From Methanothermobacter thermautotrophicus str. Delta H (lineage in GTDB: Archaea; Methanobacteriota; Methanobacteria; Methanobacteriales; Methanothermobacteraceae), in the NCBI RefSeq assembly GCF_000008645.1, contig NC_000916.1, positions 1,350,001-1,382,000 on the forward strand: a stretch of DNA of 32,000 bases, in the 5' to 3' direction. The translations under genes and the position numbers were made by a program. How positions within the stretch are numbered: the first letter of the stretch is position 1; each line of letters begins with the position of its first letter. Shown piece by piece: positions 13,131 through 32,000 of this stretch. The notes under the pieces are model-generated. The model worked only from the letters and a program-made list of their open reading frames with translations, made no database searches and was not told where the DNA came from.

Positions 13131-13132
13131 GG

Positions 13133-13915
13133 GTGATTGAATTGAAATTCCTGAGGTTCATGAAGGATGGAAGGCTCCTTCACGGGTTCACAGAGAACAG
13201 AAGGATATTGGAGATCCGGGAGGAGGAATACCTCTCAGATAACCCTGAGGTCATTGCTGAACATTCACTGGATGATGTGAGGATACTACCACCGGTATCC
13301 CCATCCAAGGTAGTCTGTGTGGGCCTCAACTACAGGGACCATGCCGCTGAACTTGGAATGGACATCCCGGATGAACCGATCATCTTCCTTAAACCGCCGA
13401 CAACCGTGATAGGTTCTGGGGACACAGTGATATATCCTGAGATGTCCTCAGAAGTTGACTATGAGGTTGAACTTGCAGCCGTCGTATCAGAGAGGGCCCG
13501 GAGGGTTGACTCCTCGGCGGCATCTGAGTTCATAGCAGGCTACACTGTCCTCAATGATGTAACTGCAAGGGACCTGCAGAGGAGGGACGGTCAGTGGACA
13601 CGTGCAAAGAGTTTTGACACCTTCTGCCCGATAGGGCCTGTAATAGAGACTGATGTAACTCCGGATAATCTTGATATATCCCTGAAACTCAATGGAGAGG
13701 TCAGACAGTCCTCAAACACGTCCAACATGATATTCACGGTCCACGAGCTCCTCGAGTTCATATCCCATGTCATGACACTGGAGCCAGGGGACGTCATAGC
13801 AACTGGCACACCTCCCGGCGTGGGCCAGATGGTACCTGGGGACACCGTGAGGGCCACCGTTGAGGGTGTGGGGACCCTTGTGAACCGGGTTGAAAGGTCT
13901 GTGTGGATGGATTGA
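13133..13915 (+). CDS. fumarylacetoacetate hydrolase (FAH) family protein
   Basis: VCVGLNYRDHAAELG...EVELAAVV...GTPPGVG are FAH-family motifs. The start is ambiguous between GTG 13133, TTG 13142 (6 nt after GAGGGTGAT) and ATG 13160. Confidence 0.85.
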   Translation: MIELKFLRFMKDGRLLHGFTENRRILEIREEEYLSDNPEVIAEHSLDDVRILPPVSPSKVVCVGLNYRDHAAELGMDIPDEPIIFLKPPTTVIGSGDTVIYPEMSSEVDYEVELAAVVSERARRVDSSAASEFIAGYTVLNDVTARDLQRRDGQWTRAKSFDTFCPIGPVIETDVTPDNLDISLKLNGEVRQSSNTSNMIFTVHELLEFISHVMTLEPGDVIATGTPPGVGQMVPGDTVRATVEGVGTLVNRVERSVWMD

Positions 13916-13938
13916 GGATTTTATCGACCATTGAGAAA

Positions 13939-14053
13939 GGATTCTTTTTTCATAATTTTTCAGAGAAAAGAGAGATGGGTCTGGATATTCTTTTGAGGAA
14001 TTCTCATTTTTTCATATGTTTGCAGAGAAAAGAGAAAAAATGGGTCTGGATTT
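13939..14053. repeat. imperfect tandem duplication (~58-nt units) of a T-run/A-run element between convergent genes; probable bidirectional terminators
   Basis: Unit A (13939-13989) is GGATTCTTTTTTCATAATTTTTCAGAGAAAAGAGAGATGGGTCTGGATATT. Unit B (13997-14053) is GGAATTCTCATTTTTTCATATGTTTGCAGAGAAAAGAGAAAAAATGGGTCTGGATTT. Confidence 0.6.
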
Positions 14054-14081
14054 ATACTCTAGGAAAAGAGCTGTCTGAGGA

Positions 14082-16931
14082 TCATTCAAGGTATATGGCT
14101 GGCTTCAGGGGAACGGCATTCACAGCCTTGTTTTCAGGGTCATAGTCTGGTTTGCTGTGTATCACAACCCTGGCTCCAACCTCTGATTCAATGTAATCAG
14201 ATGCATCCATGAGTACGCTGTACTCGTCTATCACCGTAACCTCTGATTTACCAAGGTCCCTGATGATCCTCCTTACAAATTCAGCAACCTCCTTCATGTT
14301 ATCATGGATGCCCTCAGCTGAAACCCTTCCCATTATGGAGCCCATATCTAGTTTTCCTACCTCTGCTGCGACCCTTAGCACATCCCATTTCCATTTTGGT
14401 GAGGTGTATATGTGGACCCTCTCCGGGGTGGATCCAAGGATCTTCATGATTTCCTGAATGTCTCTAACGGTATTCTGGACCATCTCCTCTGCAACCTGCA
14501 CATCCCTGCTCTCTGCATCATCTGAGAAGTCAGGCCATGGAGCTTCTGCTACAAAACCCTCACCACCATACCTCTCCCACATCTCCTCAGCAGTGTAGGG
14601 TATGAATGGAGCCATGAGCCTTATCCAGGCGTGCAGAACGTTTGCAAGGACAGATTTAACCTCATCATCAACTCTACCCTCAACACGCTTAAGGTAGTGG
14701 TCAACATCCTTTTTAAGGAGATAGAGTGCCTCCTGAACTGCCTTTCTTGTCTGGAATGATTCAAGGGCCCTTGTGGCTTCACGTATCCTCTGGTTCAGCT
14801 GACCCATCATCCACCTTCCAATGAAGCTTTCAGGTTCAGCTGGAGTAACCTCACTGAGGACTGGCCTACCATCCAGGATACCTGAGACCCTCTCTCCGAA
14901 TTCCCTGAACCATTCAATCCTCCTGCGGGTCCCGATGACCTCACTCTCCCTCCAGTCAAAGTCCTGCCATGGCTCTGCTGAGGACATGAGGAAGAGCCGC
15001 ACCACGTCTGCACCGTGCTTCTCGATGGCATCCCTCAGGAGTATGACGTTGCCCTTGGAGGATGACATCTTGTTGCCCTCAAGAAGGCCCATACCAAAGA
15101 CCACAGCCCCCCGGGGCCACCCTGACTCAGGGAATATGGCTGAGTGGTGGAATATATGGAATGTCAGGTGATTGCCTATGAGGTCCTTTGCAGAGAGCCT
15201 CCAGTCAAGGGGGTACCAGTACCGGAATTCCTCCCTGAGATCCTCAAAGGTTCCTGAATCATCTAGGAATATGGCATCAAAGAACTCATCGTCCATCTCC
15301 CCGGCATCCATCTCCCTGAGGCGGTGTGCGATGGTGTAATATGCCATGTAGATTGTTGAGTCTGTGAGGGGTTCGATGATCCACCTCTCATCCCAGGGCA
15401 GCCTTGTTCCAAGGCCTATCCTCCTTGAACATGCCCAGTCATTGAGCCAGTCGATGTAGTATTCAAAGTTGGCCCGGACCTCCTCGGGTATTATCTTCAT
15501 GCCATCGAGGCACCTGTGGGCGAGGTCCTTCCAGGCGTCATCAGAGTACTTCATGAACCACTGGTCCTCCATGACCCTCACAACGCACCTGCCACCGCAG
15601 CGGCATATAACAGGTCGCTCAGCGAATTCATACATCTCATCTGCAAGGCCCTGGTCCTTCAGTTCATCAGCGATGACCTCACGGGCCTCAGAGACCTTCA
15701 TACCACCATAGACAGGGATGTGGCTGCTCATAACACCCCTCGCATGCTCGATCTTGTATAGCTCCCCGGTGGCATCCTCAAGGCGGGGGTCCTCCTGGTT
15801 TCTGACACCAAATTTCTCTATAACCTCGGCCGCCGGGAACTCACCGTAGCCATCCACTGCTATGACATTCACGGGCTCAATATCAGCAACCACATCCTCA
15901 AGACCGTACCTTTCAAGGAGTTCATGGTCTGTCCTGAGGTCCTCAAGGGCTATGAAGTCTGCAGGGGCATGTGCAGGGACAGAGAACACAACACCTGTGG
16001 CATATTCAGGGTCAACGAAGGAAGCCGGGAGTATGGGGTGTTCCTGGCCCGTCACAGGATTCTCCACGCACATCCCTATCAGGTCCCCGGGGTTGACGTC
16101 ACCGGAAACCTTGAGGTCCAGTTTCTGGTGTGAAAGATTATCCACGGCAGCCCTGCTTATTATCCACTCCTCACCACCTGTTTCAACCCTCACATAATCC
16201 TCATCAGGGTTCAGCCAGAGGTTGGTGGCCCCATAGATTGTCTCGGGCCTGAAGGTGGCTGCGACCAGGTATGAGTCTCCAAGTTTGAATTTGAGGAGTG
16301 TGAGCTGGTTTATGGCAACCCCCTCACCCTCAAGGAGGTCATGGTCACCCACAGGGTTTTCACATTCAGGGCAGTACTTAACAGGATGGGCGCCCTTCCT
16401 TACGAGGCCAAGGTCCCTCAGCTTCCTTATCTGCCACTGTATGAACCTGCTGTAGGTGGGATCCGTGGTTTTGAATTCACGCCTCCAGTCGATGGAGTAG
16501 CCCATATCCTCCATAACAGACCGGTATTCCCTGCTGAAGTATTCAACTATGTACTCAGGGTCACTGAAACGTTCAAGCTCATCCTCGGGGACCCTGTGGA
16601 CCTCCCTGTAGATTTTGAGGGTCCAGGGATCCTTCCTCTGAATCCTCCGCGCTATCCCTATGACAGGGGCCCCTGTGACATGCCAGGCCATGGGAAACAG
16701 GACGTTGTAGCCCTGCATCCTCTTGAACCGTGCATAGACATCAGGGACAGTGTAGGTCCTCCCGTGTCCTATGTGCATCGCACCACTGGGGTAGGGGTAA
16801 GCGACTGTGAGGAATATCTTTTCTCTGTCATCAGGGTCAGCCTGAAATATGCCAGCATCTCTCCATCTATCACGCCATTTTCTTTCAATATCCACTGAAT
16901 CACCGCCATCATGGCCTTTTAACTTCATCAT
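14082..16931 (-). CDS. leuS: leucine--tRNA ligase
   Basis: A 949-aa class I aaRS with an HIGH-type motif (AMHIGH), a KMSKS-type motif (KMSSSKG) and archaeal LeuRS layout. The true start may be GTG 16895, which follows GGCGGTGAT and would remove the overlap with cutA. Confidence 0.95.
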
Positions 16932-18129: not shown

Positions 18130-19122
<993 letters not shown>

Positions 19123-19130
19123 ATCCCTTA

Positions 19131-19180
19131 AATTTTTTATGATCAGTACATTGAGCACCTGATTTTTCCTCTTTTTACCA
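19131..19180 (+). terminator. oligo-T tracts after get3
   Basis: T6 at 19133-19138 and T5 at 19163-19167 and 19172-19176, starting 11 nt after the stop. This is the archaeal oligo-T termination signal type. Confidence 0.45.
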
Positions 19181-19390
19181 CCTTTAAGGCCACTGTATTA
19201 TAGAATCACCATCTTTTATTAAAAAATTTTCCATCTCAGATGTCATTATTTCAATTTATATCATATTTAAGACCTTTAAATCTTAATATGGAATTTAAAT
19301 GGGAGTATATCAAATTTTAAAATAATTTTTGACTTCTTAATGTATTTTAGGATGCTGGGGGCTCCTAATTTTTTCAAAGAAAAAAATGCC

Positions 19391-19405
19391 AAAATTTATA
19401 ATATT
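19391..19405 (+). promoter_or_regulatory. TATA-like box for the hmd paralogue
   Basis: AAAATTTATAATATT lies ~45 nt upstream of ATG 19448. AGGTGA SD at 19436-19441. Confidence 0.45.
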
Positions 19406-19447
19406 CATTCAAATTACTTAACAATATATTAATGTTAGGTGAGCACT

Positions 19448-20473
19448 ATGAAAGTTGCAGTTTATGGCGCGGGTAACCAGAAACTTTATGTGGACCAGCT
19501 GAACTTGCCTGAAAAATATGGGGGTGAGGCACCCTACGGTGGAAGCAGAATGGCAATTGAATTTGCAGAGGCCGGACATGACGTTGTACTGGCAGAACCA
19601 GCAAGGGATATGCTGGATGATGCACACTGGAAGGTGGTTGAGGATGCAGGGGTCACAGTAACAGACAACGATGCAGAGGCAGCCAGTGAGGCTGAAATAG
19701 CAGTACTCTTCACACCCTTCGGTAAGAAGACCTTTGAGATAGCAAAGAACATAACAAATCACCTGCCAGAGGGGGCTGTCATAGCAAACACCTGTACGGT
19801 CTCACCTGTGGTACTCTACTACGTACTTGAAAGGGAGCTTAGAAGGGATCGTAAGGACCTGGGTATAGCATCAATGCACCCTGCAGCCGTCCCTGGTACA
19901 CCACAGCACGGCCACTATGTCATAGGGGGTCACTCAAGCAGTGAACTTGACATAGCAACAGATGAACAGATATCAAGATGCGTTGAACTCGCTGAAAGCT
20001 GCGGTAAGGTAGCCTATGTTGTACCAGCCGACGTATCAAGTGCAGTTGCAGATATGGGGTCACTTGTTACAGCGGTCACACTTTCAGGTGTCCTTGACTA
20101 CTACTATGTGGGTACACAGATAATCAGGGCCCCCAAGGAGATGGTTGAAAAGCAGATCCTCATGACACTCCAGACCATAGCTTCACTCGTTGAAACCTCA
20201 GGTGTTAATGGAATGCTCAAGGCCATGAACCCTGAACTCCTTGTGAGGAGCGCTAAATCAATGCACCTCCTTGAGGAGCAGGAGGAACTGGATGCAGCAC
20301 TCAACACCCTATCAGACCTTGATGATGAGGTAAATAAATGGATAGAGAAGGGTGAGATCAGGCACACGGATCTGGTTGCTGCACAGGCCCTTGCAAAGGA
20401 GATAAAGAACCTCATGGGTGGAAAGGCTGCCGAGGGTACAATAAGGCGCTGCATGAGGAAGATGTTTGAATAA
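19448..20473 (+). CDS. hmdIII: H2-forming methylene-tetrahydromethanopterin dehydrogenase paralogue (Hmd-related, HmdIII-type)
   Basis: MKVAVYGAGNQ... has a Rossmann-like N-terminus, a conserved Cys in NTCTVSP (equivalent to the FeGP-ligand Cys of Hmd) and SMHPAAVPGTP. Divergence from canonical Hmd indicates a paralogue. The assignment to III rests on remembered locus order. The track start is GTG 19439. Confidence 0.8.
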   Translation: MKVAVYGAGNQKLYVDQLNLPEKYGGEAPYGGSRMAIEFAEAGHDVVLAEPARDMLDDAHWKVVEDAGVTVTDNDAEAASEAEIAVLFTPFGKKTFEIAKNITNHLPEGAVIANTCTVSPVVLYYVLERELRRDRKDLGIASMHPAAVPGTPQHGHYVIGGHSSSELDIATDEQISRCVELAESCGKVAYVVPADVSSAVADMGSLVTAVTLSGVLDYYYVGTQIIRAPKEMVEKQILMTLQTIASLVETSGVNGMLKAMNPELLVRSAKSMHLLEEQEELDAALNTLSDLDDEVNKWIEKGEIRHTDLVAAQALAKEIKNLMGGKAAEGTIRRCMRKMFE

Positions 20474-20476
20474 TAA

Positions 20477-20512
20477 TTTTTCCTTATCTTATTTTGTGCA
20501 ACAAATTTTTTT
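20477..20512 (+). terminator. oligo-T tracts after the hmd paralogue
   Basis: T5 at 20477-20481, T4 at 20492-20495 and T7 at 20506-20512, directly after the TAA stop. Confidence 0.5.
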
Positions 20513-20591
20513 GAGACCAATTCGGCAGCTGATTTTTGCAATGATTTGATGTTATCCAGAATAAGTTTTTAGTAGAAGCTCTGAATCGATG

Positions 20592-20613
20592 TTTTAATCC
20601 AAAAAATAAAAAG
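20592..20613 (-). terminator. oligo-T tract (minus strand) after the large surface-protein gene
   Basis: The plus strand reads AAAAAATAAAAA at 20601-20612, giving T-runs on the minus strand that begin 3 nt after the stop at 20615-20617. Confidence 0.5.
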
Positions 20614-20614
20614 A

Positions 20615-23600
20615 TCAGGTGACGGTTATTCTCATATTAACCGCCCTGAAGGTCTTTTTTATGTACACGTACCTGTAACCCCTTATGGTGTTGCTGTAGT
20701 TGAGCGTTGCTGATAGTGTGTCGGCTCTGAAGGTCTCTGAGAGTTTTATGGTCCTGGTGTACCTGCTCGGGTTGTAGATCTTCCTCGTTGTCACTATCCT
20801 TGCATCGTATGGGTAGTATCCGATGGTTGCTGAGTAGCTTCTGCCGGGTTTCAGTGTGAACTTGAATGTCCGGTATCCAAGTTTTGCACCGGTTGATGAA
20901 TAAACCGTCACATAGTATGTCACTGTGGTGGTGTACTTTCCTGTATTTCTGAATGTGAAGGAGTATTTTCTTCTGGCCGGGTTAACGTATACTGTGCTGT
21001 TCCTGAGGTTACCCAGACTGAAGGTGTAGACACCGGGTCCGGATAGGTACTGCTGGAAGTTTATGTTTCCTCTCTCCCCGGGTCCGAGTCTGATGGTTTC
21101 GTTCCTTATGAGTGACCCGTTTAGGTAGAATGGTATGCTGAATTCCCCTTCAAGGTCACCACTGTTTTCAATCTCTGCACTGACATTTGCGTTCACTGAC
21201 CCCACAGCGCTTCCCGGTGTAACACTGAATGATCTTATCTCAAGTGTGGCTGGTTTCAGTGCGTTCACATTGATGCCGGGCGGATTATCTATCCACACCG
21301 TGTGGTTGCCCCTCTGCGTTATATTGTATGTGAATGACACTGTGACATCCCCACCGGCAGGCACGTTAACGGTCCTGTTCTGGACATTCACACCGTCAAT
21401 GTAGAGCCTTGCGGTGTAGTTACCGGCAATGTCTCCGATGTTGGTCACCCTTACAGATGCATTGACTCTGAAGGGTATGACTCCGGTGGATGGTGAAACA
21501 GTTAGGCTGTCAACAATGAAGGTTGCGGGTCTTAGAACCCTCACCGTGACCGGGGAAAGGGAATTGACAGTCACCTGGTGCTCACCTGGTTCACTGATAT
21601 CCGCTGTGAAGCTAACAAGCACTGAACCCGGACCTGTGACCCTAACGGTCCTGTTCTGGACATTCACACCGTCAATGTAGAGCCCTGCAGTGTAGTTTCC
21701 AGACCCCTCCTCAGTGGTGCTTACCAGGGCCGTGACTATTATCCTGTGTGGTGAAACACCGGTGAGTGGTGTGGCACTGAGGTTTGAGATTGCAGGTTCA
21801 CTGAGTACCCTCACATCAAGTGGGGTTAGAGATCCTATTCCAGCCAGGTATATTCCGGCATTTTCTATGGTGTGATTAAATGCCACCTGGACGCTTCTAC
21901 CGGCCCCAACTGTAACATTCTTCTCATCCACAGCCAGACCGTTGATGTAGAGGACTGCAGTGTAATTCCCGTCAACCTCGCCGGTGTTCCTGGCAGTGGC
22001 AGTGGCTGTTATGGTAAGAGGGCTGAAACCTGAAGATGGTGTCACGCGCAGATCTGAGAGGGTTATGCTGGCAGGTCTAAGGACACGCACGATTTTACTG
22101 AACTCATTGATTCCCACAGTATGGTTTCCAGGGGTTAGAAGTGTCCCCATGGCGATTTCCCTTGTTTCGCCCGGACTGAGACTCACAATGTTCTCCTGGA
22201 CGACCACACCATCAACCATTAGCCTTGCAGTGAAACCTATAACCAGGTCGTGGGGATTTGTCACGTTCAGGGACGCCCTTACACTTAATGGGGCCGGGCC
22301 TGTCACAGGCGTGACATTGAACCCTGTGATCGTTGGATCAGGCTCAAGGACCCTGATAGTCACATCAGTGCCTGAGTTCAAACGCAGACGGTATTCACCT
22401 GGAAAGGCGAGCTCCTTTTTGAATGAAACCAGCACCGAACTCTTACCAGGGACACTGACGGTTCTGGTTTCCCAGGCTACATCATCAAGGTAGAGCGTCA
22501 CTGCGAAATCACCTGCTAGGTCACCGTTGTTCCTTACTATTGCAGTGACAGTCACGTTGAGTGGTGATTTGCCCTCCACCGGGGAAACTGTAACATTGGA
22601 TAGTGTGAAGTTGGCCTCACTGAGGACCCTGACGGTTCCTGAGACATTATTGTTGAGTGATATCGTGTATAATCCTCTATCAGGAAGGAGTATGCTGGTG
22701 CTGAAGGGTACCGTGCTTTCACCTGGAATATTGAGGACCTTCGTGTGATCGGGAACACCGTTGACGTATATGGTGGCTGTGTAACTCCTTGGATTTGAAT
22801 CGATATTGGTGATCATGGCGCTGACCGTAACCGTCAGTGGTGCTGCTCCGCTCTGGGGTGTCAGTGTGAAGTTTTCTATGTAGAACTTCTCCCCCTCCAT
22901 GACATAGACCAGCTCGGGTTCAAGGTCGTTTATGGTGATCTCATATAGGCCTGCTGCAAGGGTCCTGTTGAAGGATACGGTGGTCCTGCTGCTGGCGTTC
23001 ACGGTGACATTCCTGCTGTCAAGGAGCACCCCGTCAATGTAAAGTTCTGCTGTGTAGCTGTCTGGAAGGTCGCCGTAGTTTACAAGGTCAGCTGTCACAT
23101 TCACCTTCAGGGGCTCCTGGCCACCTGATGGTGTCACCCGGAGGTTCTCTGGGATTATCAGGGGCCCGAGGAATACCCTCACAGTTGCTGGTGGGAAGTT
23201 GTTCACACCCACAGAATATGCCCTGCTGTTTCTCAGGGTGTATTCAAACTCGAAGGGCTCTGTTTCCAGTGAACCAACCTCGACCCACTTTCCAGCAGTC
23301 CTGTAACCGTTTATGTAGAGGTCAAGTCTGTACCACCCTGTGGAATCACCGCAGTTGGTTATGTTACCTCTAAGGGTTACTGTGAGGGGTCCTGTCCCGT
23401 TGAGGGGTGTCACGCTGATGTTGCTTATTATGAATGGTGTGAATCTTGTAAGGAAACCATCTGAGAGTCCTGTGAGATTCTTTTTGCAGGCATCTGGAGT
23501 TACCGTGAAATTTGAGGACCAGGTTTTCCCTGCAACATAGATGTTCTGGTACCTGTCAACCGCCACACCGTAGCCCTGGTCTGCCTCAATGCCCCCCAGG

Positions 23601-24841
23601 TAGGAGCTGTAGAGGACGCCTTTCGGGATGCTGAATTTCATAACGAAGGCATCCACACCACTTAAGGAACTGTCGTATGCTCCGGGTGTTAAGGGGAAGT
23701 TATCTGATCCTGTCCAACCTGTGAGGTAGAGGTTTCCAAGGATGTCCTGTGTGATATCGTTTATTGAGTCGTCTCCGCGCCCACCGAGATAGGTTGAGTA
23801 TTCCACTGAGTAGTCATTGAATACCATGATGAAACCGTCACTGGAGCCGTTCCTTGTTTTCTGGTAGGCGTTTGGTGTCACAGGGAAGTCAGATGAATTG
23901 GTTTTACCTGCGAGGTAAATCCGGGAGTCCCTGGATATAATTGAATAACAGAAATCCGGTCCTGAACCTCCAAGATAGGTTGAATAATCACAATTCAGGT
24001 CTGGAGTGAATCTTGATAGAAATATATCGGTGGTTCCCCTTTTATCACCGGATATGGCATCAAATGTCACTGGAAAGTCATCTGAGTAGGTGTATCCCGT
24101 AATGTATATGTTACCTGCATAGTCAATGGCGATACCCTGGCAGTAGTCGTCCCATGATCCCCCAAAGTATCTTAGATTGACAGGATTGAGGTCCTGGTCG
24201 AACCTGGCAAGAAATGCATCGTATCCACCATGATAGGTCCAGTCTGTCAGTGGAGTTGCGTTTGGGTTGGTCCCAGGCACTCTGGCTGTACCCCCACCCA
24301 GCTCGGATACATTGAGGACGGTTGAAATTGTGTAGCCACTGACGTAAATGTTGCCCTCATAATCGATGGCAAGGCCCTTTGCAACGTCATAGCCTGAGCC
24401 GCCAATGTATACCCTCTTAACTTCTTTGCCTGAGGGGTCTATTTTTGATATGAAGGCATCCGCAACCTTCAGACCGTCATGGTTTATCTCGCCCACAACG
24501 TAGGCGTATCCATCTCCATCTGCAACTATTCTGTGGCCCCAGTCGTCTCCTGATGTGTCAGTTAATATTGTGTGGTATATGACTTCTCTTGTCACGTTAA
24601 ATTTGGTGACGAATACATCCTTGGATCCATTTACATGTGTAGATCCGGTCACATAGATGTACCCTGAGTCGTCCACATAGACGTCACGTGCCTCGTCAAC
24701 GACTTTGTCACCGAGGTATGTTGAATAGTCCACTGTATAGTTTGATTCTGCAGCTACTGTACCCTGCAGTATCAGTAGGAGGAATATGGTGCAAAACAGA
24801 ATAGAAAACCTTTTATATAGGTCTATTTTATCACCTCCCAA
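20615..24841 (-). CDS. secreted surface/adhesin-like protein: signal peptide, ~7 beta-propeller (SBBP-type) blades, 9 CARDB-like repeats and a basic C-terminal module
   Basis: The N-terminus FSILFCTIFLLLILQGTVAA is a signal peptide. About seven copies of YSTYLGG..D.g.giavD..GNIYVtG.T.S.dFPVTp follow. Nine ~90-aa repeats have the pattern ..VTP..G..PL.V.v.a.v.N.GD..G.YtA.LYidGv......V.v.....v.vsF........G.h.v.....v.VRVL. I counted about 40 N-x-S/T sequons by hand. The start is uncertain (see findings). Confidence 0.85.
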   Translation of the reverse strand: MGGDKIDLYKRFSILFCTIFLLLILQGTVAAESNYTVDYSTYLGDKVVDEARDVYVDDSGYIYVTGSTHVNGSKDVFVTKFNVTREVIYHTILTDTSGDDWGHRIVADGDGYAYVVGEINHDGLKVADAFISKIDPSGKEVKRVYIGGSGYDVAKGLAIDYEGNIYVSGYTISTVLNVSELGGGTARVPGTNPNATPLTDWTYHGGYDAFLARFDQDLNPVNLRYFGGSWDDYCQGIAIDYAGNIYITGYTYSDDFPVTFDAISGDKRGTTDIFLSRFTPDLNCDYSTYLGGSGPDFCYSIISRDSRIYLAGKTNSSDFPVTPNAYQKTRNGSSDGFIMVFNDYSVEYSTYLGGRGDDSINDITQDILGNLYLTGWTGSDNFPLTPGAYDSSLSGVDAFVMKFSIPKGVLYSSYLGGIEADQGYGVAVDRYQNIYVAGKTWSSNFTVTPDACKKNLTGLSDGFLTRFTPFIISNISVTPLNGTGPLTVTLRGNITNCGDSTGWYRLDLYINGYRTAGKWVEVGSLETEPFEFEYTLRNSRAYSVGVNNFPPATVRVFLGPLIIPENLRVTPSGGQEPLKVNVTADLVNYGDLPDSYTAELYIDGVLLDSRNVTVNASSRTTVSFNRTLAAGLYEITINDLEPELVYVMEGEKFYIENFTLTPQSGAAPLTVTVSAMITNIDSNPRSYTATIYVNGVPDHTKVLNIPGESTVPFSTSILLPDRGLYTISLNNNVSGTVRVLSEANFTLSNVTVSPVEGKSPLNVTVTAIVRNNGDLAGDFAVTLYLDDVAWETRTVSVPGKSSVLVSFKKELAFPGEYRLRLNSGTDVTIRVLEPDPTITGFNVTPVTGPAPLSVRASLNVTNPHDLVIGFTARLMVDGVVVQENIVSLSPGETREIAMGTLLTPGNHTVGINEFSKIVRVLRPASITLSDLRVTPSSGFSPLTITATATARNTGEVDGNYTAVLYINGLAVDEKNVTVGAGRSVQVAFNHTIENAGIYLAGIGSLTPLDVRVLSEPAISNLSATPLTGVSPHRIIVTALVSTTEEGSGNYTAGLYIDGVNVQNRTVRVTGPGSVLVSFTADISEPGEHQVTVNSLSPVTVRVLRPATFIVDSLTVSPSTGVIPFRVNASVRVTNIGDIAGNYTARLYIDGVNVQNRTVNVPAGGDVTVSFTYNITQRGNHTVWIDNPPGINVNALKPATLEIRSFSVTPGSAVGSVNANVSAEIENSGDLEGEFSIPFYLNGSLIRNETIRLGPGERGNINFQQYLSGPGVYTFSLGNLRNSTVYVNPARRKYSFTFRNTGKYTTTVTYYVTVYSSTGAKLGYRTFKFTLKPGRSYSATIGYYPYDARIVTTRKIYNPSRYTRTIKLSETFRADTLSATLNYSNTIRGYRYVYIKKTFRAVNMRITVT
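20978..23434 (-). repeat. nine tandem ~276-nt coding repeats (CARDB-like domains) inside the surface-protein gene
   Basis: Periodicity is visible in the protein sequence. It is also visible at DNA level as a 42-nt perfect repeat (21367-21408 versus 21643-21684), exactly 276 nt apart. Confidence 0.8.
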
Positions 24842-25151
24842 AGGTGAACTTTATTCTCACAGTTATAATGAATATAATTTACGGTTTGATCTTGAAATTA
24901 AGAAATTATCTTTACACTTCAAAAAAATAAACTGGATGTTTTCATGAAGTTATACAATAAGAGGGACAATCTAAAAAGGATTTTTATTAATAGAGGATTA
25001 TTCAGTATTAATCAGCCTCAGAAAACATCCGGAGCATCAGCAGCTGAAAATTCGTTATATACAGTCACGGCTTCGGTGGCAGAATATTTCAGCTGATGTG
25101 TCGTTTTCAGGATATCAGAGAAGGGGATGGAATTAGAGGTAAATAAAGGCT

Positions 25152-25775
25152 TCAGAGGACAACGAGGATGGACATGTAACTGAATTCAGATTCACTCACA
25201 TCCCTCAGTGTTGATTTCAGGACCCTCTCATCGGGATAGCTGAGCCTTTCACAGACAGCAACCCTCCTTTCAGGGTCAAGACCGCATTCAATGAGGAATG
25301 CTGCTGTCTTTGATGGATTCCTTGAGGGCAGGATTATGGTTGGCCTCCCATTATCAATTACATCCAGGATCCCCTCCTCGCCACGTCCATGAAGGGTGAT
25401 GACATCTGCATCGTCCCAGGGTATCAGCAGCCTCGCAGCACATAGCTGGATTGAGCTGATTCCAGGCACCACCTTCACCCTCACCGGGAGTCCACGGGAG
25501 GATATTATCCTTTTCAGTGGTTTGAGGACCCCTGAAAATCCAGGGTCGCCTGTGGAGAGCACGGAGACCTCCATGGCGATTGCAAGTTCAGCAGCCCTTC
25601 CTAACTTCTCATCCATATCCCTGGCACCGAGGACCACGGTTTTTCTGGCGGATGGAAAAAGTTCAAGGGCCCTGCGACTTCCAAATACAACTTCTGAGTT
25701 CATAACCACATTTTTTGCAGCGGGTGTGATGTAATCCGGCGATCCTGGACCTATTCCCACTATGTTCAGAGTCAT
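25152..25775 (-). CDS. cbiE: cobalt-precorrin-7 (C5)-methyltransferase / precorrin-6Y methylase CbiE
   Basis: Tetrapyrrole methylase fold with IVGIGPGSPDYIT and VLSTGDPGFSG. The ~207-aa size is typical of CbiE. Confidence 0.85.
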   Translation of the reverse strand: MTLNIVGIGPGSPDYITPAAKNVVMNSEVVFGSRRALELFPSARKTVVLGARDMDEKLGRAAELAIAMEVSVLSTGDPGFSGVLKPLKRIISSRGLPVRVKVVPGISSIQLCAARLLIPWDDADVITLHGRGEEGILDVIDNGRPTIILPSRNPSKTAAFLIECGLDPERRVAVCERLSYPDERVLKSTLRDVSESEFSYMSILVVL

Positions 25776-25867
25776 AAAATTACCCCTATTCCATCAAATC
25801 AGCACGGAGGCAGATATTCACTGGGTCTCAGCAATCTCTCCATTAAAGAGAGTGTCCCATACCAACA

Positions 25868-25880
25868 TTTTATTATAATA
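25868..25880 (+). promoter_or_regulatory. TATA-like box for the GTPase gene
   Basis: TTTATTATAATAT is centred ~36 nt upstream of ATG 25910. Confidence 0.4.
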
Positions 25881-25909
25881 TCCCGGCACTACTTATTAAT
25901 GTGATAACA

Positions 25910-27100
25910 ATGATCCAGATTGCAGTCACAGGAAAACCCAACGTTGGAAAATCATCATTCTTCAATGCAGCCACCCTATCTGAGGCCGAGGTTGCATCAT
26001 ATCCCTTCACAACAATCGATGCCAACCATGCAGTGGCCTATGCATCCTGCAGATGCCCCTGCAGGGAACTTGGAGTTGAATGCAACCCCCGGAACTCCCG
26101 GTGCATCAATGGTGTCAGACTAATACCAGTGGAGCTCATAGACGTCGCCGGCCTGGTACCAGGGGCCCATGAGGGGAGGGGCCTCGGGAACAAGTTCCTT
26201 GATGACCTCAGACAGGCGAGGGCATTTCTCCATGTCATAGACGCCTCGGGTTCCACCGATGAGGAGGGGAGACCCGTTGAAGCAGGAAGCCACGACCCCC
26301 TGGAGGACGTTGAGTTCCTGGAGGAGGAGATAACCATGTGGCTCTACGGGATCCTCGAGAGGAACTGGGAGAGGCTCCTCAGAAAGGCTGCTTCAGAGAA
26401 GCTCGACATGAACCGAATCATACATGAACAGCTCTCAGGTACCGGAATAACACCTGAGGACATCATTGAGGCATCAAGAAAGGTGGATGCCGATGTTTAT
26501 TCATGGGGGAAGGATGAGCTTCTGCAGTTCCTTGATGAGCTCCTCAGAATAGCAAAGCCAATGCTCATAGTTGCAAATAAGGCTGACCTTCCCTCAGCCG
26601 GTGAGAATATTGAGCGCCTGAAGGATGCCTACCCCCACGTGGTACCCGCATCTGCAGAGGCTGAACTGGCCCTCAGAAGGGCAGCAGAGGCGGGTTTAAT
26701 CAGTTACACCCCCGGTGGCAGTGAATTTGAGATAATCGATGAATCAAAGCTCACAGATAAACAGAGGGCGGCCCTTGAGTACATACGTGAAAATGTCCTG
26801 GAGGTTTACGGAAGCACAGGTGTCCAGGAGGCCATCAACAGGGCCGTATTTGATCTTCTGGACATGATAGTTGTCTTCCCGGTTGAGGATGAGCACAGAT
26901 TCACTGACCAGAAGGGGAATGTGCTGCCAGACGCCATCCTTGTACCGCGGGGCTCCAGTCCAAGGGACCTTGCCTACCTGATACACACGGAGATAGGTGA
27001 CTCCTTCCTCCATGCGGTGGATGCCAGAAAGGGTATGAGGGTCGCATCCGACCATGAACTGGAGGATGGGGACATAATAAGCATTATATGCAGCAGATAG
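25910..27100 (+). CDS. YchF/OLA1-related Obg-family GTPase with C-terminal TGS-like domain
   Basis: G1 [10 protein letters not shown]2 PFTTID, G3 DVAGLV and G4 NKAD, with a C-terminal ...[13 protein letters not shown] 25910 is preferred; the track start is GTG 25901. Confidence 0.85.
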
Positions 27101-27114
27101 TTTCATAGGATATC

Positions 27115-27250
27115 ACATTAATTTAATAACATGAGTGGTGCATTTCAAGTGTAAGTCCCCTTGATGAAGCTGGTGGCTGTGCAACCCCAAGGGTATGGGA
27201 TGAGAGTATTACATTAATTTAATAATGAGGGTGGTGTGTTTCAAGTGTAA
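27115..27250 (+). repeat. two 40-nt direct repeats (period 96 nt) upstream of the P-type ATPase, each with a TATA-like core
   Basis: 27115-27154 is ACATTAATTTAATAACATGAGTGGTGCATTTCAAGTGTAA. 27211-27250 is ACATTAATTTAATAATGAGGGTGGTGTGTTTCAAGTGTAA. About 34 of 40 positions are identical. Confidence 0.6.
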
Positions 27251-27264
27251 ATGTGGTGTTAACC

Positions 27265-29985
27265 ATGACCGCCATATATGAACTTGAAGTGGAGGAGGTC
27301 CTGCAGAGGCTTGAAACATCAGAATCAGGCCTTGACCCCCAGGAGGCGGAAAAACGCCTCAAGATCCACGGTCCAAACAAACTTGAGGAGGTCAAAAGGA
27401 GACCACTCATCCTGCTTTTTCTATCAAACCTCTACAACGTACTTGCACTGCTGCTCTGGATCGCAGCCATACTGTCCTTTATAACAGGCAATTACCAGCT
27501 TGCAGTCGCCATTGTAATGGTTATAATCATAAACGCACTCTTCAGTTTCTGGCAGGAATATGAGGCTGAAAAGGCAGCCGAGGCCCTTAAAAACATTCTG
27601 CCTGTGATGGTTAAGGTCATAAGGGCCTCAAAGGAGGTTCTGATACCCGCGGCTGATGTCGTGCACGGGGACATCATAATCCTTGAGGAGGGGGACACCG
27701 TCCCGGCCGACGCAAGGATCCTTGAATCACACAACCTGAGGGTGGATGCATCAGCACTGACAGGAGAATCAAAACCTGTGAGAAAGGTATCACACCCGGT
27801 CAGGGAGGCTGATAACTACATAGACACAGAGAACATTCTGTTTGCAGGCACCCAGGTGACTTCAGGTACAGGAAGGGCCGCTGTGTTTGCAACCGGCAGG
27901 GACACCGAGTTCAGCAGGATAGCGACACTCACACAGGAGGTGCGTGAGGAGCCCAGCCCCCTCCAGCGACAGATATCCCTGGCCGCAAGGATCATAGGGG
28001 CCCTGGCGGTCGCCATGGGGGTCATCCTCTTCCTGGTGAACCTTTACATAGTCAGACTCCCCCTTGAAACGGCATTCATATTCGCAATTGGTTTGATGGT
28101 TGCAAACGTCCCGGAGGGCCTTCTTCCGAGCGTCACACTCTCACTTGCGGCATCCGCAAGGAAGATGGCCCGGGAAAACGCCCTTGTGAAGAGACTTTCC
28201 AGTGTGGAGACACTGGGATCAACGACAATCATATGCACAGATAAGACAGGGACCCTCACAAGGGGTGAGATGACGGTCAGGAAAATATGGATCCCCCATA
28301 AGGTCATCGAGGTCACAGGGTCAGGTTACAGACCAGAAGGTCAGTTCCTCTTCAGGGGTGAACCAGTGAGCCACAGGGACATGGCCGAGCTGAAGCTGCT
28401 CATGAGGGCAGCCACCTTCTGCAACGATTCGGCCCTCATACATGAGGAAGGTGAATGGAGTGTGCTGGGTGATTCAACCGAGGGCGCCCTCCTTGTTGCA
28501 GCCGAGAAGCTGGGCTTTGATGCTGAGGCAGAACTCAAAGCGATGCCAAGGATAACAGAGCTCCCCTTTGACTCCAGGCGGAAATCAATGACCTCAATCC
28601 ATGAGAAATCAGGGAAGAGGGTGGCCTACGTCAAGGGAGCGCCAAAGAAGATAATAGGATTATCGGAACGCATTTCTGTGGATGGGAGGGTCAGAGCCCT
28701 CCATGCAGATGAGAAGGAAAGGATAATAGGCATACATGATGAAATGGCCTCGAAGGGTCTCCGTGTACTTGCCTTCGCATACCGGGAACTCCCCGAGGAC
28801 CTTGAAGTCAGGGACCCCGGTGAGGTTGAGAGGGACCTTGTACTGGTGGGCATGGCAGCCATGCATGATCCACCAAGGGAGGGGGTTAAGGAGGCTGTGG
28901 AGCACTGCAAGACTGCAGGTATAAGGATCATAATGATAACAGGTGACTATGGTCTCACAGCAGAGGCCATAGCCAGGGAGATCGGGATAGTGGAGGGTGA
29001 GTGCAGAATAATCAAGGGAAAGGAGCTGGATAAGCTCAAAGACACCGAACTCAGGGGTATACTGGCCAGGGAGAGGAACCTTATATTCGCAAGGGCGGTC
29101 CCTGAACATAAGATGAGGATAGCATCTGTCCTGGAGGACTCAGATGAGATCGTTGCCATGACAGGGGACGGTGTTAACGATGCACCCGCCCTCAGGAAGG
29201 CAGATATAGGTGTTGCCATGGGGAGCGGCACCGATGTTGCAAAGGAGGCAGCAGACATAGTCCTTGCAGATGACAACTTTGCAAGTATCGTGACCGCGGT
29301 CAGGGAGGGCCGTACGGTCTATGAGAATATAAGGAAGTTCATAACCTACATATTTTCTCATGAGACAGCTGAGATAGTCCCATTTATCATGATGGTTCTC
29401 TTCAGCATACCCCTCCCAATAACCATAATGCAGATACTCGCAATAGACCTTGGAACAGACACCCTCCCGGCCCTGGCCCTTGGAAGATCCCTGCCGGAGT
29501 CTGATGTGATGAAACTGCCACCAAGGGCCCCCTCAGAGAGGCTCCTTAACAGGGAGGTCATCCTGAGGGGTTACCTGTTCACAGGGACAATTGAGGCAGC
29601 CCTCATCATGGCAGCATACTTCCTGGTTCTCTATTCAGGGGGATGGCTTCCAGGACAGGAACTTTCAGCCAGCGATCCCCTCTACATGAGGGCCACCACG
29701 GTGGTCTTTGCAGGTATAGTCATGGCACAGCTGGGCAATCTTCTCTCCTCACAGACCCTCCGTTCATCAGCACTTGAGGCGGGCCTCCTGAGGAACAGGT
29801 GGATACTGGCAGGTATGGTCTTTGCAATCTCGGTGATGCTCCTTGTTATCTATCTGCCACCACTGCAGCCCATCTTCGGCACAGCCCCACCCGGAATCCT
29901 GGAGTGGTTCATCCTGATACTCTTCACACCCATCGTCTTTCTGACAGATGAGATGAGGAAGTTCATACAGAGGAGGCTGGCCTGA
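27265..29985 (+). CDS. P2-type cation-transporting ATPase with Na,K/H,K-ATPase-like (P2C) transmembrane ion-site motifs
   Basis: DKTGTLT phosphorylation site, [11 protein letters not shown] and TGES motifs, and an N-terminal Cation_ATPase_N-like region. M4 reads VANVPEGLL and M6 reads [17 protein letters not shown]. ATG 27265 follows TGTGGTG; the track start is GTG 27253. Confidence 0.9.
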   Translation: [906 protein letters not shown]

Positions 29986-29990
29986 ACATC

Positions 29991-30022
29991 ATGGATTGTC
30001 AGGGATACTAATTTATAGGGCC
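29991..30022 (+). promoter_or_regulatory. promoter-like direct repeat, copy A
   Basis: ATGGATTGTCAGGGATACTAATTTATAGGGCC. Its TATA-like core (30008-30016) is centred ~27 nt upstream of ATG 30040, which is leaderless geometry. The sequence recurs at 30721-30757. Confidence 0.55.
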
Positions 30023-30039
30023 AGGAGTATGTAAGGGAC

Positions 30040-30297
30040 ATGATGAGGAGAATAAAAAAAGAAAAGAGGAGGTCAGCGGAGGAGGAGTGGATCATCCTCA
30101 AAAGGCAAATCTACAGGTTAAGTGTGGAGGCGGGTTGGCCCCTGGAGTACATCCTAGAGATGCCATACTCCTCCTTCACGGAGTGCCTGCTATCATTCCA
30201 GGACCCGCCCAGGCAGGGGCCAGCAGTGAGGGATGTTGAAGCGGAACTGGATAGACTAAAAGAACTCAACTACAAGAGTATGCGATCGAGGATATAG
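30040..30297 (+). CDS. hypothetical 85-aa soluble protein with basic N-terminus
   Basis: ORF MMRRIKKEKRRSAEEEWIILKRQ... with no TM segment and no recognised family. Supported mainly by the TATA spacing. Its 3' end overlaps the convergent gene by 28 nt. Confidence 0.45.
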   Translation: MMRRIKKEKRRSAEEEWIILKRQIYRLSVEAGWPLEYILEMPYSSFTECLLSFQDPPRQGPAVRDVEAELDRLKELNYKSMRSRI

Positions 30298-30671
30298 AGG
30301 ACCATGAAGAAGGGGAGAGTCATGGTAGATGGTACATGCCATAAAAGACTTGATAGGATTAAGATGAGCGCTGTGCCTAGAGAGAAGATCCATGCGATGA
30401 CTGCAATGACCTTGGTCATGAATGGGGCATCATCGAAGGATGTGTCCTTCCCATTGAACCATAGTATCACCGCTAAAGCAATGCCACCCAATGTGAGTTC
30501 TGAGAATCCTATGAAGCCGTAGGGGATAGAGAACACTCCCACCCCTAGAGCTGTTCTCCTCAAGAATGTTTCCCTTTTGAGTTTTCCGCCGCATTCGCAG
30601 ATGTAATCATCAGGGTCCTCCCCATCATTTAGGGTGTAGGTTTCCCCACATTCCTCACATTTCACCTTCAT
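30270..30671 (-). CDS. hypothetical zinc-ribbon membrane protein (133 aa)
   Basis: The N-terminus CEEC-x16-CEC fits a Zn-ribbon. Three to four hydrophobic helices follow (GVGVFSIPYGFIGF, LGGIALAVILWF, VIAVIAWIFSLGTALILILSSLLW, LPFFMVLYIL). Confidence 0.6.
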   Translation of the reverse strand: MKVKCEECGETYTLNDGEDPDDYICECGGKLKRETFLRRTALGVGVFSIPYGFIGFSELTLGGIALAVILWFNGKDTSFDDAPFMTKVIAVIAWIFSLGTALILILSSLLWHVPSTMTLPFFMVLYILDRILL

Positions 30672-30720
30672 AGTAGAATATTATGTCTGAAGTATTATGT
30701 AATCCTTACGGGGGAGTTGT

Positions 30721-30757
30721 ATGGTTGATCATACAGGGATACTAATTTATTAGGGCC
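30721..30757 (+). promoter_or_regulatory. promoter-like direct repeat, copy B
   Basis: ATGGTTGATCATACAGGGATACTAATTTATTAGGGCC. It shares CAGGGATACTAATTTAT plus AGGGCC with copy A. It lies ~50 nt upstream of ATG 30799, whose SD GGAGGTG is at 30787-30793. Confidence 0.55.
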
Positions 30758-30798
30758 CGGACTGAACTATGATTAATTAAAGAAATGGAGGTGCTGGT

Positions 30799-31074
30799 AT
30801 GAGATGGTTAGCTCTTCTCATGCTCATGATATTTGTGGCGGGTTCATCGATAGGGACCTGCATGGCCCACTCAGGGGATACCCTGAAACCAGCCATGAAG
30901 GGTAAGGCTGGTGGCGGGTTTAAGAGTTCATCAGGAAAACATATTGACCTCGACGACGATGATGATTCTGGTGGCGCTGATGATTCTGCAGGTGGGGACT
31001 GGCTATGGCTTCTTGTCCTTATCATTCTAATTGTTGTGATAGCTGTGCTGATTCTCATCTATCTGAGGCGATGA
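30799..31074 (+). CDS. small (91 aa) bitopic membrane protein with signal-peptide-like N-terminus, poly-Asp/Gly ectodomain and C-terminal TM helix
   Basis: MRWLALLMLMIFVAGSSIGTCMA | HSGDTLKPAMKGKAGGGFKSSSGKHIDLDDDDDSGGADDSAGGD | WLWLLVLIILIVVIAVLILIYLRR. Strong SD with 5-nt spacing. It lies 102 nt upstream of mthK on the same strand. Confidence 0.6.
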   Translation: MRWLALLMLMIFVAGSSIGTCMAHSGDTLKPAMKGKAGGGFKSSSGKHIDLDDDDDSGGADDSAGGDWLWLLVLIILIVVIAVLILIYLRR

Positions 31075-31176
31075 TAGACGAATGGCTGGCCGCGCCTTCG
31101 CTGTTTACAGACAGTAACTGGATGCTGATGGGTGGTGGAAACTTTGCCAGTGATTGATGAGTCCTGAGGGGATAGG

Positions 31177-32000
31177 ATGGTCCTTGTAATTGAGATCATA
31201 AGAAAGCATCTCCCAAGGGTCTTAAAGGTCCCGGCCACGCGCATACTCCTCCTTGTTCTTGCTGTGATCATCTACGGCACAGCAGGGTTCCATTTCATAG
31301 AGGGGGAGTCATGGACGGTTTCCCTCTACTGGACCTTTGTAACAATAGCAACTGTTGGTTACGGTGACTACAGTCCCTCAACGCCACTTGGAATGTACTT
31401 CACGGTAACCCTTATCGTACTTGGCATAGGGACCTTCGCGGTTGCAGTTGAAAGACTTTTAGAGTTCCTCATAAACAGGGAGCAGATGAAATTAATGGGG
31501 CTGATAGATGTGGCTAAATCAAGGCACGTGGTTATATGTGGCTGGAGTGAGAGTACCCTGGAGTGCCTCAGGGAACTCCGGGGGAGTGAGGTGTTTGTGC
31601 TTGCAGAGGATGAGAACGTCAGGAAGAAGGTCCTGAGGAGTGGGGCCAACTTTGTCCATGGGGACCCCACCAGGGTCTCTGACCTTGAAAAGGCCAATGT
31701 CAGGGGCGCGAGGGCGGTTATAGTGGACCTTGAATCTGACTCAGAGACCATACACTGCATACTTGGCATAAGGAAGATAGATGAATCTGTGAGGATCATA
31801 GCCGAGGCTGAGAGATATGAGAACATTGAGCAGTTGAGGATGGCGGGTGCTGATCAGGTGATATCCCCCTTTGTCATATCAGGGAGGCTGATGTCCAGGA
31901 GCATCGATGACGGCTATGAGGCTATGTTCGTACAGGATGTGCTTGCAGAGGAATCCACAAGGAGGATGGTTGAAGTCCCAATCCCTGAAGGGAGCAAACT
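31177..32000 (+). CDS. mthK: calcium-gated potassium channel MthK (partial; C-terminus beyond window)
   Basis: Absent from the ORF track because there is no stop in the window. My translation reads [77 protein letters not shown]...[31 protein letters not shown]... The selectivity filter TVGYGD is at 31351-31368 and an RCK domain follows. It matches my memory of the published MthK sequence. Confidence 0.95.

Follow-up and report, generated by a model that had tools for sequence, protein, structure and literature searches.

Introduction

The pump and the channel considered here both have well-described relatives. The alpha subunits of the Na,K- and H,K-ATPases represent the P2C class of P-type ATPases, which in eukaryotes depends on partners of the beta and FXYD kinds. 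Few K+ channels have received as much attention from structural biology as MthK, which, to our knowledge, has always been studied alone. P2C-like ATPases also occur in methanogens, where section 7 of PMC10654040 (Palmgren, 2023) discusses them as an enigma and names their role in archaea as an open question. Here, we describe a locus of Methanothermobacter thermautotrophicus str. Delta H in which a pump of this kind and MthK are near neighbours. The locus spans positions 27101-32000 of a 32,000-nucleotide stretch (NC_000916.1, positions 1,350,001 to 1,382,000 of the forward strand; hereafter the window), and it holds five open reading frames (ORFs): a P-type ATPase, three small ORFs that we call s1, s2 and s3, and mthK.

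An earlier note on this DNA had read the five genes as a previously undescribed K+ homeostasis module, with a Na,K-ATPase-like pump and small proteins that might be its accessory or regulatory subunits. The features on which that proposal drew, namely the pump motifs, the three small genes and mthK, are all present where the note had placed them. Our analysis leads us, with moderate confidence, to a different reading: the locus would consist of three separable units rather than one five-gene machine, the pump and the channel would probably act on the same ion, and s3 would be a candidate partner of MthK. "Previously undescribed" overstates the case for the pump itself, since P2C-like ATPases of methanogens are treated in section 7 of PMC10654040. 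What is new, and can be put to the test, is the putative s3-mthK operon and the linkage of the pump clade to RCK and Trk genes across phyla.

s3 and mthK as a putative two-gene unit

The channel gene, mthK, begins at position 31177 on the plus strand and runs to position 32000, where the window ends after residue 274 of 336. Its product matches PDB entry 1lnq_A with 590 bits over residues 1-274, contains the Pfam domains Ion_trans_2 and TrkA_N, and has the pore motif TVGYGD together with an RCK domain, which identifies it as the Ca2+-gated K+ channel. Upstream of it lies s3 (30799..31074, plus strand; MTH1519 by position), which encodes 91 residues. We find s3 directly 5' of mthK, on the same strand, in 17 related loci as well as in the window, and in most species the gap between the two genes is 12-40 nt. 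Five further members of the s3 family, traced by exact-sequence look-up, show the same order.

The pairing is independent of the distance to the pump. Where 1-5 kb of other genes intervene after the pump (loci L004, L006, L013, L029, L032 and L099), s3 stays beside mthK. In a Methanobacterium locus with no pump within 5 kb upstream (L096, 5001-5784), two tandem s3 paralogues of 114 and 120 residues precede mthK. The two genes are also absent together: both are missing from at least 16 loci, and s3 is missing from the loci without mthK, eight of which have a clean junction between the pump gene and sfsA. The state without s3 and mthK is scattered over the pump tree and therefore points to several independent losses. 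The sole locus with mthK but no s3 is L025 (10730-10933), where mthK directly follows the pump. Separately, we note that L057 (9058-9210) has no more than a short remnant of mthK, placed between the pump and sfsA.

Upstream of s3, a block reading ATTTTTAT is invariant in eight Methanobacterium species, about 45-50 nt 5' of the s3 ATG, and is accompanied by a GGAGG ribosome site. In the window, the matching TATA-like sequence falls in the right-hand copy of a 17-nt direct repeat (30734..30750, plus strand), about 50 nt 5' of the s3 ATG; this is the likely TATA region of an s3-mthK transcript. Taken together, the constant position of s3, its shared absence with mthK and the upstream block argue that the two genes form a two-gene unit with a putative promoter of its own. 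Within such a unit, s3 would be the best candidate for a partner of MthK, not of the pump. Among the papers searched, none mentioned an operon partner of MthK. Some gene callers also place a 28-residue ORF at 31071-31157, overlapping the s3 stop codon in the spacer between s3 and mthK, and this ORF is probably spurious.

The s3 protein is built from an N-terminal signal-like helix (residues 1-23), a disordered Gly/Ser/Lys stretch, a predicted transmembrane helix (residues 68-89) and a C-terminal RR. An acidic cluster at residues 50-67 (nt 30946-30999) is predicted to lie just outside the membrane. The family comprises 115 clusters, of which every named one comes from Methanobacterium, Methanobacteriaceae/-ales or Methanothermobacter, and none contains a known domain. 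In the family alignment, a hydrophobic N-terminus is followed by a variable stretch, an NPxVKGGGG-like motif and a Ser-rich run; the C-terminal half then holds an acidic cluster of the form KKxDGDDDD, a Trp, one transmembrane helix and a basic end. Between five and nine of the 25 residues preceding the membrane are Asp or Glu. AlphaFold 2 models, run on s3-family proteins from the database, place helices at residues 3-21 and 67-90, the second with a pLDDT of about 85, and have low confidence between them. Searches with s3 gave no Pfam, NCBIfam or PHROG match above threshold and one sub-threshold Pfam match. We considered a lipobox near the end of the signal peptide and rejected it, as the Cys there is not conserved and its context is unfit.

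A pump related to P2C ATPases

The pump gene (MTH1516 by position) occupies 27265..29985 on the plus strand and encodes 906 residues from the ATG that gene callers choose; the ORF extends to a GTG at 27253, which would give 910 residues. Pfam recovers the full P2-type domain set, and the protein has the P-type core motifs, TGES among them, along with the ten-helix P2 architecture. The phosphorylation motif DKTGTLT is encoded at 28240..28260, and a second, 11-residue motif quoted by the earlier note at 29161-29193, both on the plus strand. The membrane motifs, likewise on the plus strand, are VANVPEGLL in M4 (28099..28125), whose Glu corresponds to E327 of the Na,K-ATPase, a 13-residue motif in M5 (29347..29385) and an 11-residue motif in M6 (29440..29472).

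Comparisons with known structures favour the P2C side. In a phmmer search of the PDB, the whole pump scored 543 bits against Na,K-ATPase, 519 against LMCA1, 516 against H,K-ATPase, 480 against SPCA and 476 against SERCA. When only M5-M10 were used, the preference for P2C became clearer, with 100-120 bits for the H,K- and Na,K-ATPases, 86-95 for SERCA, 84 for SPCA and 62 for LMCA1. The marks of P2A pumps are missing: the query lacks the M4 PEGLP and M6 NLVTDG motifs, falls short of the curated P2A scores, and has Gln in M8 at the place of Glu E908.

We built a neighbour-joining (NJ) tree of 185 sequences, comprising the pump, homologues from 37 genome loci, representatives retrieved when 1.84 billion proteins were searched exhaustively, human ATP1A1 and rabbit SERCA1a. 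The two references were validated at full length against the PDB (2345 bits to 7e1z_A and 2263 bits to 1iwo_A, respectively). The query and ATP1A1 fall within a 71-member clade, in which M6 follows the pattern D..D (IDLGTD-like) in every member but one; the 90 pumps with the pattern N..D (NLVTDG-like) all fall outside it, as does SERCA1a. No N..D pump and no SERCA1a entered this clade in any of 100 bootstrap replicates. Within the clade, ATP1A1 groups with prokaryotic pumps that bear the Na,K-ATPase-type M5 motif TSNxPE; one of these, P0268, retains the complete Na,K-ATPase ligand set, D926 and E954 included. The pumps of the Methanobacteriaceae are consistently monophyletic, on a branch of their own beside actinobacterial pumps with AHLGPE in M5, and are not part of the Na,K-ATPase sub-branch.

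Motifs, structural matches and tree thus agree with the earlier suggestion that the pump is P2C-like rather than Ca2+-pump-like, and they support placing it closer to P2C than to P2A. The placement that the note had expected holds in part: the pump groups with ATP1A1 and away from SERCA, but as a sister sub-branch that departs from the Na,K-ATPase in M5, in Na+ site III, at the beta interface and in profile score. On sequence grounds, we class it as a prokaryotic P2C relative that lacks a beta subunit, and not as a true Na,K-ATPase. Two oddities turned up among the homologues. In L087 (2489-5208; GCA_054682095.1) the pump is called as two ORFs of 83 and 822 residues, which suggests a frameshift, a pseudogene or an assembly error. 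A metagenome locus (L167, 248-3349) carries what is apparently a genuine eukaryotic Na,K-ATPase alpha subunit (CIDLGTDMVPA, YTLTSNIPEISP).

Ion-site residues are numbered here as in pig alpha-1, and we take their roles to be those in the Na,K-ATPase structures. In HMMER and MAFFT alignments, the query has Glu at E327, Tyr at Y771, Ser at T774, His at S775, Glu at N776, Glu at E779, Asp at D804, Thr at T807, Asp at D808, Gln at Q923, Asn at D926 and Ala at E954. Both M6 Asp residues are therefore kept, M5 reads SHETAE in place of TSNIPE with E779 alone retained of the S775/N776/E779 set, and the Q923/D926/E954 set of Na+ site III is Gln/Asn/Ala. Most Methanobacterium homologues keep the M9 Glu, and all of them have Asn, Ser or Thr at the D926 position. 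Across the 120 nearest homologue clusters, M4 PEGLL and M6 IDLGTD with both Asp residues are invariant (120/120), and M5 is IF[SATV]HETAE in 112 and IFAHLTPE in four, so that 116 have the His. Some members of the pump family have Leu at position 776, and the residue there is thus not an obligatory ligand.

The query shares with the Na,K/H,K alpha subunits the sequence ESDVMK..PPR after M6. Its L7/8 loop is about 25-30 residues shorter than that of the Na,K-ATPase and has no SYGQ, and the C-terminal KETYY is absent. The beta-binding insert of L7/8 and the KETYY tail are also missing from all other prokaryotic members of the clade that we examined in the alignment, and Pfam and NCBIfam searches recognised no beta-subunit gene in the flanks examined. 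With no beta interface in the group, the need for beta and FXYD partners does not carry over from eukaryotic P2C pumps. The pump is best described as a putatively beta-less, P2C-related ATPase in which site I is re-modelled and site III is not intact. The gastric H,K-ATPase has Lys791 at the S775 position, and a bulky ionisable residue there changes stoichiometry. By analogy, we expect the invariant His to protrude into site I, so that fewer ions would be moved per cycle than by the Na,K-ATPase. The transported ions would most likely be monovalent cations, including K+.

Potassium genes beside related pumps

Pumps outside the family change the picture. In all seven IDLGTD-type loci retrieved from bacterial genomes, the pump is followed at once, at distances of -3 to +33 nt, by two tandem genes of about 220 codons in the same orientation. 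Both products consist of TrkA_N plus TrkA_C and have TrkA as their best NCBIfam match. These loci belong to Actinobacteria (L036, L050), Desulfobacterota (L037, L040), Firmicutes (L041, L043) and Chloroflexi (L051), and a metagenome locus (L100) has the same arrangement of a pump and two RCK genes. Within the Methanobacteriaceae, trkH directly follows the pump in five species (L005, L009, L015, L020 and L034); four of these loci have a TrkA-like gene further downstream, and three have a second TrkH gene.

No RCK ORF was found in the flanks of 28 NLVTDG-type genome loci or of eight HNW-type loci from Bathyarchaeia and Asgard. A metagenome scan with generic P-type motifs returned, among the matches listed, mostly P2A-like pumps, which served as controls. 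With both scans pooled and a downstream flank of at least 1.5 kb required, an RCK ORF lies within 5 kb of 5 of 21 IDLGTD-type loci as against 1 of 66 NLVTDG-type loci among the matches listed (Fisher p = 0.003); the former count becomes 8 of 32 when short or truncated loci are included. A further link concerns regulation. The nearest pump representatives outside the Methanobacteriaceae (P0236 and P0237, from Fibrobacter, and P0253) are fused at their N-termini to a PTS_EIIA_2 domain of about 150 residues. EIIA-Ntr regulates TrkA and KdpD in E. coli.

The association of pump with RCK or Trk genes is recurrent, not universal, and its gene contexts point to potassium as a possible common theme. 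Independent linkage to TrkA-like RCK genes, trkH or MthK across phyla argues for a real K+ connection. From these contexts, the pairing of a pump with a gated K+ path appears plausible and separable in nature.

Other unusual arrangements were seen among the relatives. P0310 combines a Na+/H+ exchanger and a P2 ATPase in one fusion protein. In L005, a second P-type ATPase of 814 residues (12675-15119) stands 3' of the pump, between trkH and the TrkA-like gene. The actinobacterial locus L036 (7388-15544) has a closely packed run of genes on a single strand: a VTT/DedA-like gene, the pump, the two RCK genes, an MFS transporter and an H+-pyrophosphatase. They stand head to tail with very small gaps and may constitute one ion-homeostasis operon.

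A strain-variable segment between pump and channel

The pump stop codon and the mthK start are 1.19 kb apart, with s1 and s2 between them. The s1 gene (O27561; MTH1517 by position) lies at 30043..30297 on the plus strand and encodes a soluble protein of 84 residues, or of 85 from an alternative start at 30040. On the opposite strand, s2 (O27562; MTH1518 by position; 30270..30671, minus strand) encodes 133 residues; it is convergent with s1 and overlaps it by 28 nt. The orientation of s2 makes a single transcript of all five genes impossible. The s2 product is predicted to contain two hydrophobic segments, and its N-terminal CxxC...CxC motif resembles a zinc ribbon.

Together, s1 and s2 sit on a 734-bp segment bounded by two copies of an exact 17-nt direct repeat, CAGGGATACTAATTTAT, for which the chance expectation is 0.04 matches. 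The left copy lies at 30000..30016 (plus strand) and includes the TATA-like AATTTAT; the right copy is the one described above. Contigs that encode an identical s3 come in two forms, one with s1 and s2 and one in which s3 follows the pump after 80 nt. The short form is found in L081, L083 and 13 similar places. In L081 and L083, the 5 kb that lead up to the junction show 99.6% identity, and exactly one repeat copy is left at the junction itself. The two forms could differ either by an insertion with target duplication or by a deletion between the repeats. Positions 25001-32000 of the window are 100% identical to CP064324.1, an M. thermautotrophicus chromosome.

Across 80 related loci, tblastn found no match to s1 and, for s2, only short zinc-ribbon matches at other positions. 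The nearest species (L001) has neither gene. A look-up in 5.8 billion proteins returned one to three related clusters for these proteins, all from Methanothermobacter; neither protein has a Pfam, NCBIfam or PHROG match, and the segment has none in phage or plasmid collections. By these comparisons, s1 and s2 are putatively dispensable, genus-specific ORFans in an indel polymorphism and not subunits.

Outside these features, an Rfam scan of 27000-32000 gave no match. A scan for promoters and terminators, whose models are bacterial and not applicable to an archaeon, found nothing, and a literature search for MTH1516-MTH1520 returned no match. Elsewhere in the window, G+C drops to 0.42-0.45 at 19001-21000 and 24001-25000, against about 0.52 in the rest.

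Discussion

We propose that the locus combines three units with separate histories. The pump would belong to a broad prokaryotic lineage that also gave rise to the Na,K- and H,K-ATPases, and it would operate without beta; of the residues that form the shared cation sites, it retains Glu in M4 and in M5 and the Asp pair in M6, and its third Na+ site appears degenerate. The 734-bp segment would be an insertion that brought two genus-specific ORFans into some strains only, with no role in the pump. The s3-mthK pair would be an operon with its own promoter, in which s3 is a predicted single-pass membrane protein with an acidic tail just outside the membrane. Pump and channel are probably ancestral neighbours in the Methanobacteriaceae, and we infer that they act on the same ion, the one as an ATP-driven pump and the other as a gated route for leak or uptake. 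In other lineages, relatives of the pump would independently have gained TrkA-like RCK genes or trkH in the corresponding place downstream. This proposal implies no physical complex of pump and channel, as the pump presumably functions without the channel in many species.

Several observations weigh against parts of this proposal. In the Methanobacteriaceae, the whole block cbiE-ychF-pump-[s3-mthK]-sfsA-nitrogenase-like-NTP_transferase-GATase-AIRS is syntenic, although its genes, which include purine genes, are unrelated, and in about half of the species the pump is retained but the channel cassette is missing. The tie between pump and channel that synteny within this family would suggest is therefore weak. 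Outside the family, RCK neighbours are confined to about a quarter of the IDLGTD-type loci among the matches listed; a close relative (L101) has no RCK gene within 5 kb, and L104-L106, L109 and L110 likewise lack the link. As to pump class, the NCBIfam scores lie under every curated subfamily cut-off (635.4 bits for P2C TIGR01106, cut-off 946; 629 for PMR1-type TIGR01522, cut-off 798; 605 for SERCA-type TIGR01116, cut-off 703), so the profiles leave the class unsettled. Raw distances from the query to the Na,K-ATPase (1.134) and to SERCA (1.130) are equal, and placement thus rests on the topology of a tree that is NJ only, has one eukaryotic reference per class and leaves out P2B, P2D and P3 sequences. 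The five carboxylates and the His of the putative site could also suit a divalent cation. For the s3-mthK pair, joint loss alone is weak evidence because a single deletion can remove two adjacent genes together, and s3 is low in complexity, fast-evolving and confined to one family.

An alternative is that the neighbourhood has no functional meaning and that the pump is a generic cation exporter, for Ca2+ for example, that merely shares an inherited gene order with mthK. We consider this unlikely, while taking it seriously. The family-wide synteny of the cbiE...AIRS block is what it would predict; ychF stands upstream of the pump in more loci than mthK does downstream, several lineages have lost the cassette and retained the pump, some source annotations name the homologues Ca2+ or Mg2+ ATPases, and the PMR1-type profile score nearly equals that for P2C. 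Inherited order does not account, however, for the presence of RCK genes or trkH immediately 3' of the pump in unrelated lineages of its clade, compared with the single P2A-like case among the 66 such loci in the matches listed. M4 and M6 are of P2C type, not the PEGLP and NLVTDG of Ca2+ pumps, and SERCA was excluded from the clade in 100 of 100 bootstraps. The K+ module of the earlier note thus gains from the linkage of the pump clade to RCK and trkH genes across phyla, and loses from an adjacency that lies within an unrelated syntenic block and from the repeated loss of the channel.

As to s3, it might be a small envelope or surface protein that happens to share a promoter with mthK and affects neither transporter, a view that we hold to be less probable than not but that is the likeliest of the rivals. 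Its low complexity, mean column identity of 40-49% and narrow taxonomic range would fit such a protein, one species (L025) keeps mthK without s3, and MthK works alone in vitro. A bystander, though, would hardly be expected to remain strictly 5' of mthK in 17 related loci, the window and five further s3-family contexts, to keep its transmembrane helix, Trp boundary, acidic cluster and basic end over about 40% pump divergence, or to stay attached to mthK after the tandem duplication in L096. That s3 is instead an FXYD-like regulatory subunit of the pump, its linkage to mthK being incidental, seems to us very improbable. The gross architecture is the same (signal peptide, short ectodomain, one transmembrane helix, basic tail), and in most loci s3 starts 100-200 nt past the pump stop codon; yet s3 is found at no pump locus without mthK, including the eight with a pump-sfsA junction and the five with trkH, it remains with mthK when parted from the pump, and a conserved promoter-like block of its own precedes it. 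The s3 family alignment shows no FXYD motif, and no s3 stands beside pump relatives outside the family. For s1 and s2, a role as accessory or regulatory subunits of pump or channel is next to impossible. Its only support is their position between the two genes, to which one may add the predicted membrane embedding of s2, whereas both genes are missing in strains 99.6% identical over the adjacent 5 kb and in the nearest species, have no tblastn match at this position in other loci, have only one to three related clusters among 5.8 billion proteins and, in the case of s2, lie on the opposite strand.

The suggestion that the small proteins are beta- or FXYD-like pump subunits accordingly finds no footing in these data: s1 and s2 vary among strains and are restricted to one genus, s3 tracks mthK, and the beta-binding loop is absent. 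The expected conservation of the gene order holds for s3-mthK and for the pump block within the Methanobacteriaceae, but s1 and s2 are limited to Methanothermobacter and the cassette is often lost.

In preference to these alternatives, we retain the reading of three separable units. A bolder extension of it would have the pump clade regulated directly by RCK proteins, with the bacterial TrkA-like pair as a gating ring, MthK or its separately translated soluble RCK domain taking this part in the Methanobacteriaceae, and s3 as a membrane-embedded auxiliary of the channel, the whole forming a pump-channel K+ unit with physical or allosteric coupling. We regard this as speculative and rather improbable. 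If true, two things would be unprecedented: the control of a P-type pump by a ligand-gated RCK ring, and a single-pass auxiliary subunit in a prokaryotic K+ channel. Short of that, MthK would have a conserved operon partner. The locus also offers a concrete handle on the question of archaeal P2C-like pumps, given its re-engineered cation site (His/Glu in M5, no third Na+ site) and neighbours that point to K+ in several phyla.

Relation to known systems

Small single-pass proteins that accompany ion transporters are known from the FXYD, KCNE and BK beta/gamma families. Like these, s3 is small, has one predicted transmembrane helix, a short ectodomain and a basic cytoplasmic end, and is encoded with a channel. 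Unlike them, it has a juxtamembrane acidic cluster without counterpart, and for s3 an interaction is a candidate only. The neighbours of the pump resemble the components of Trk/Ktr systems and MthK: it stands near MthK here, near trkH and a TrkA-like gene in other Methanobacteriaceae, and near two half-size TrkA-like genes in four bacterial phyla. Unlike in Trk/Ktr systems, no pore subunit adjoins these genes in the stretch examined of the bacterial loci L036 and L051.

Among P2A pumps, SERCA, PMR1 and LMCA1 are comparable to the query in fold, length, lack of a beta subunit and close profile scores. They differ in having PEGLP in M4, NLVTDGLPA in M6 and Glu in M8, where the query has Gln, and the two groups were split in 100 of 100 bootstraps. 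The Na,K/H,K-ATPase alpha subunits (P2C, TIGR01106) are closer. They share with the query the P2 domain set, VANVPEGLL in M4, IDLGTD in M6, ESDVMK..PPR, the M8 Gln, the best PDB matches and an NJ clade; the query departs from them in its His, Glu, Asn and Ala at S775, N776, D926 and E954, in a short L7/8 without SYGQ, in the missing KETYY and in a score of 635 against 946 bits. The gastric H,K-ATPase (Lys791) and the Artemia alpha2KK subunit, the latter the top PDB match, resemble it further in placing a bulky ionisable side chain at or next to S775/N776. In the query, which we compared with these two by sequence alone, this residue is His rather than Lys, and an extra Glu accompanies it.

The nearest described counterparts are the archaeal Na,K-ATPases in the part of Palmgren (2023; PMC10654040) considered here. 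Those pumps and the present one belong to the same broad clade, lack a beta subunit, occur in methanogens and are uncharacterised in function. The sequences presented there keep all Na+/K+ ligands, whereas the Methanobacteriaceae branch has His/Glu in M5 and a degenerate site III.

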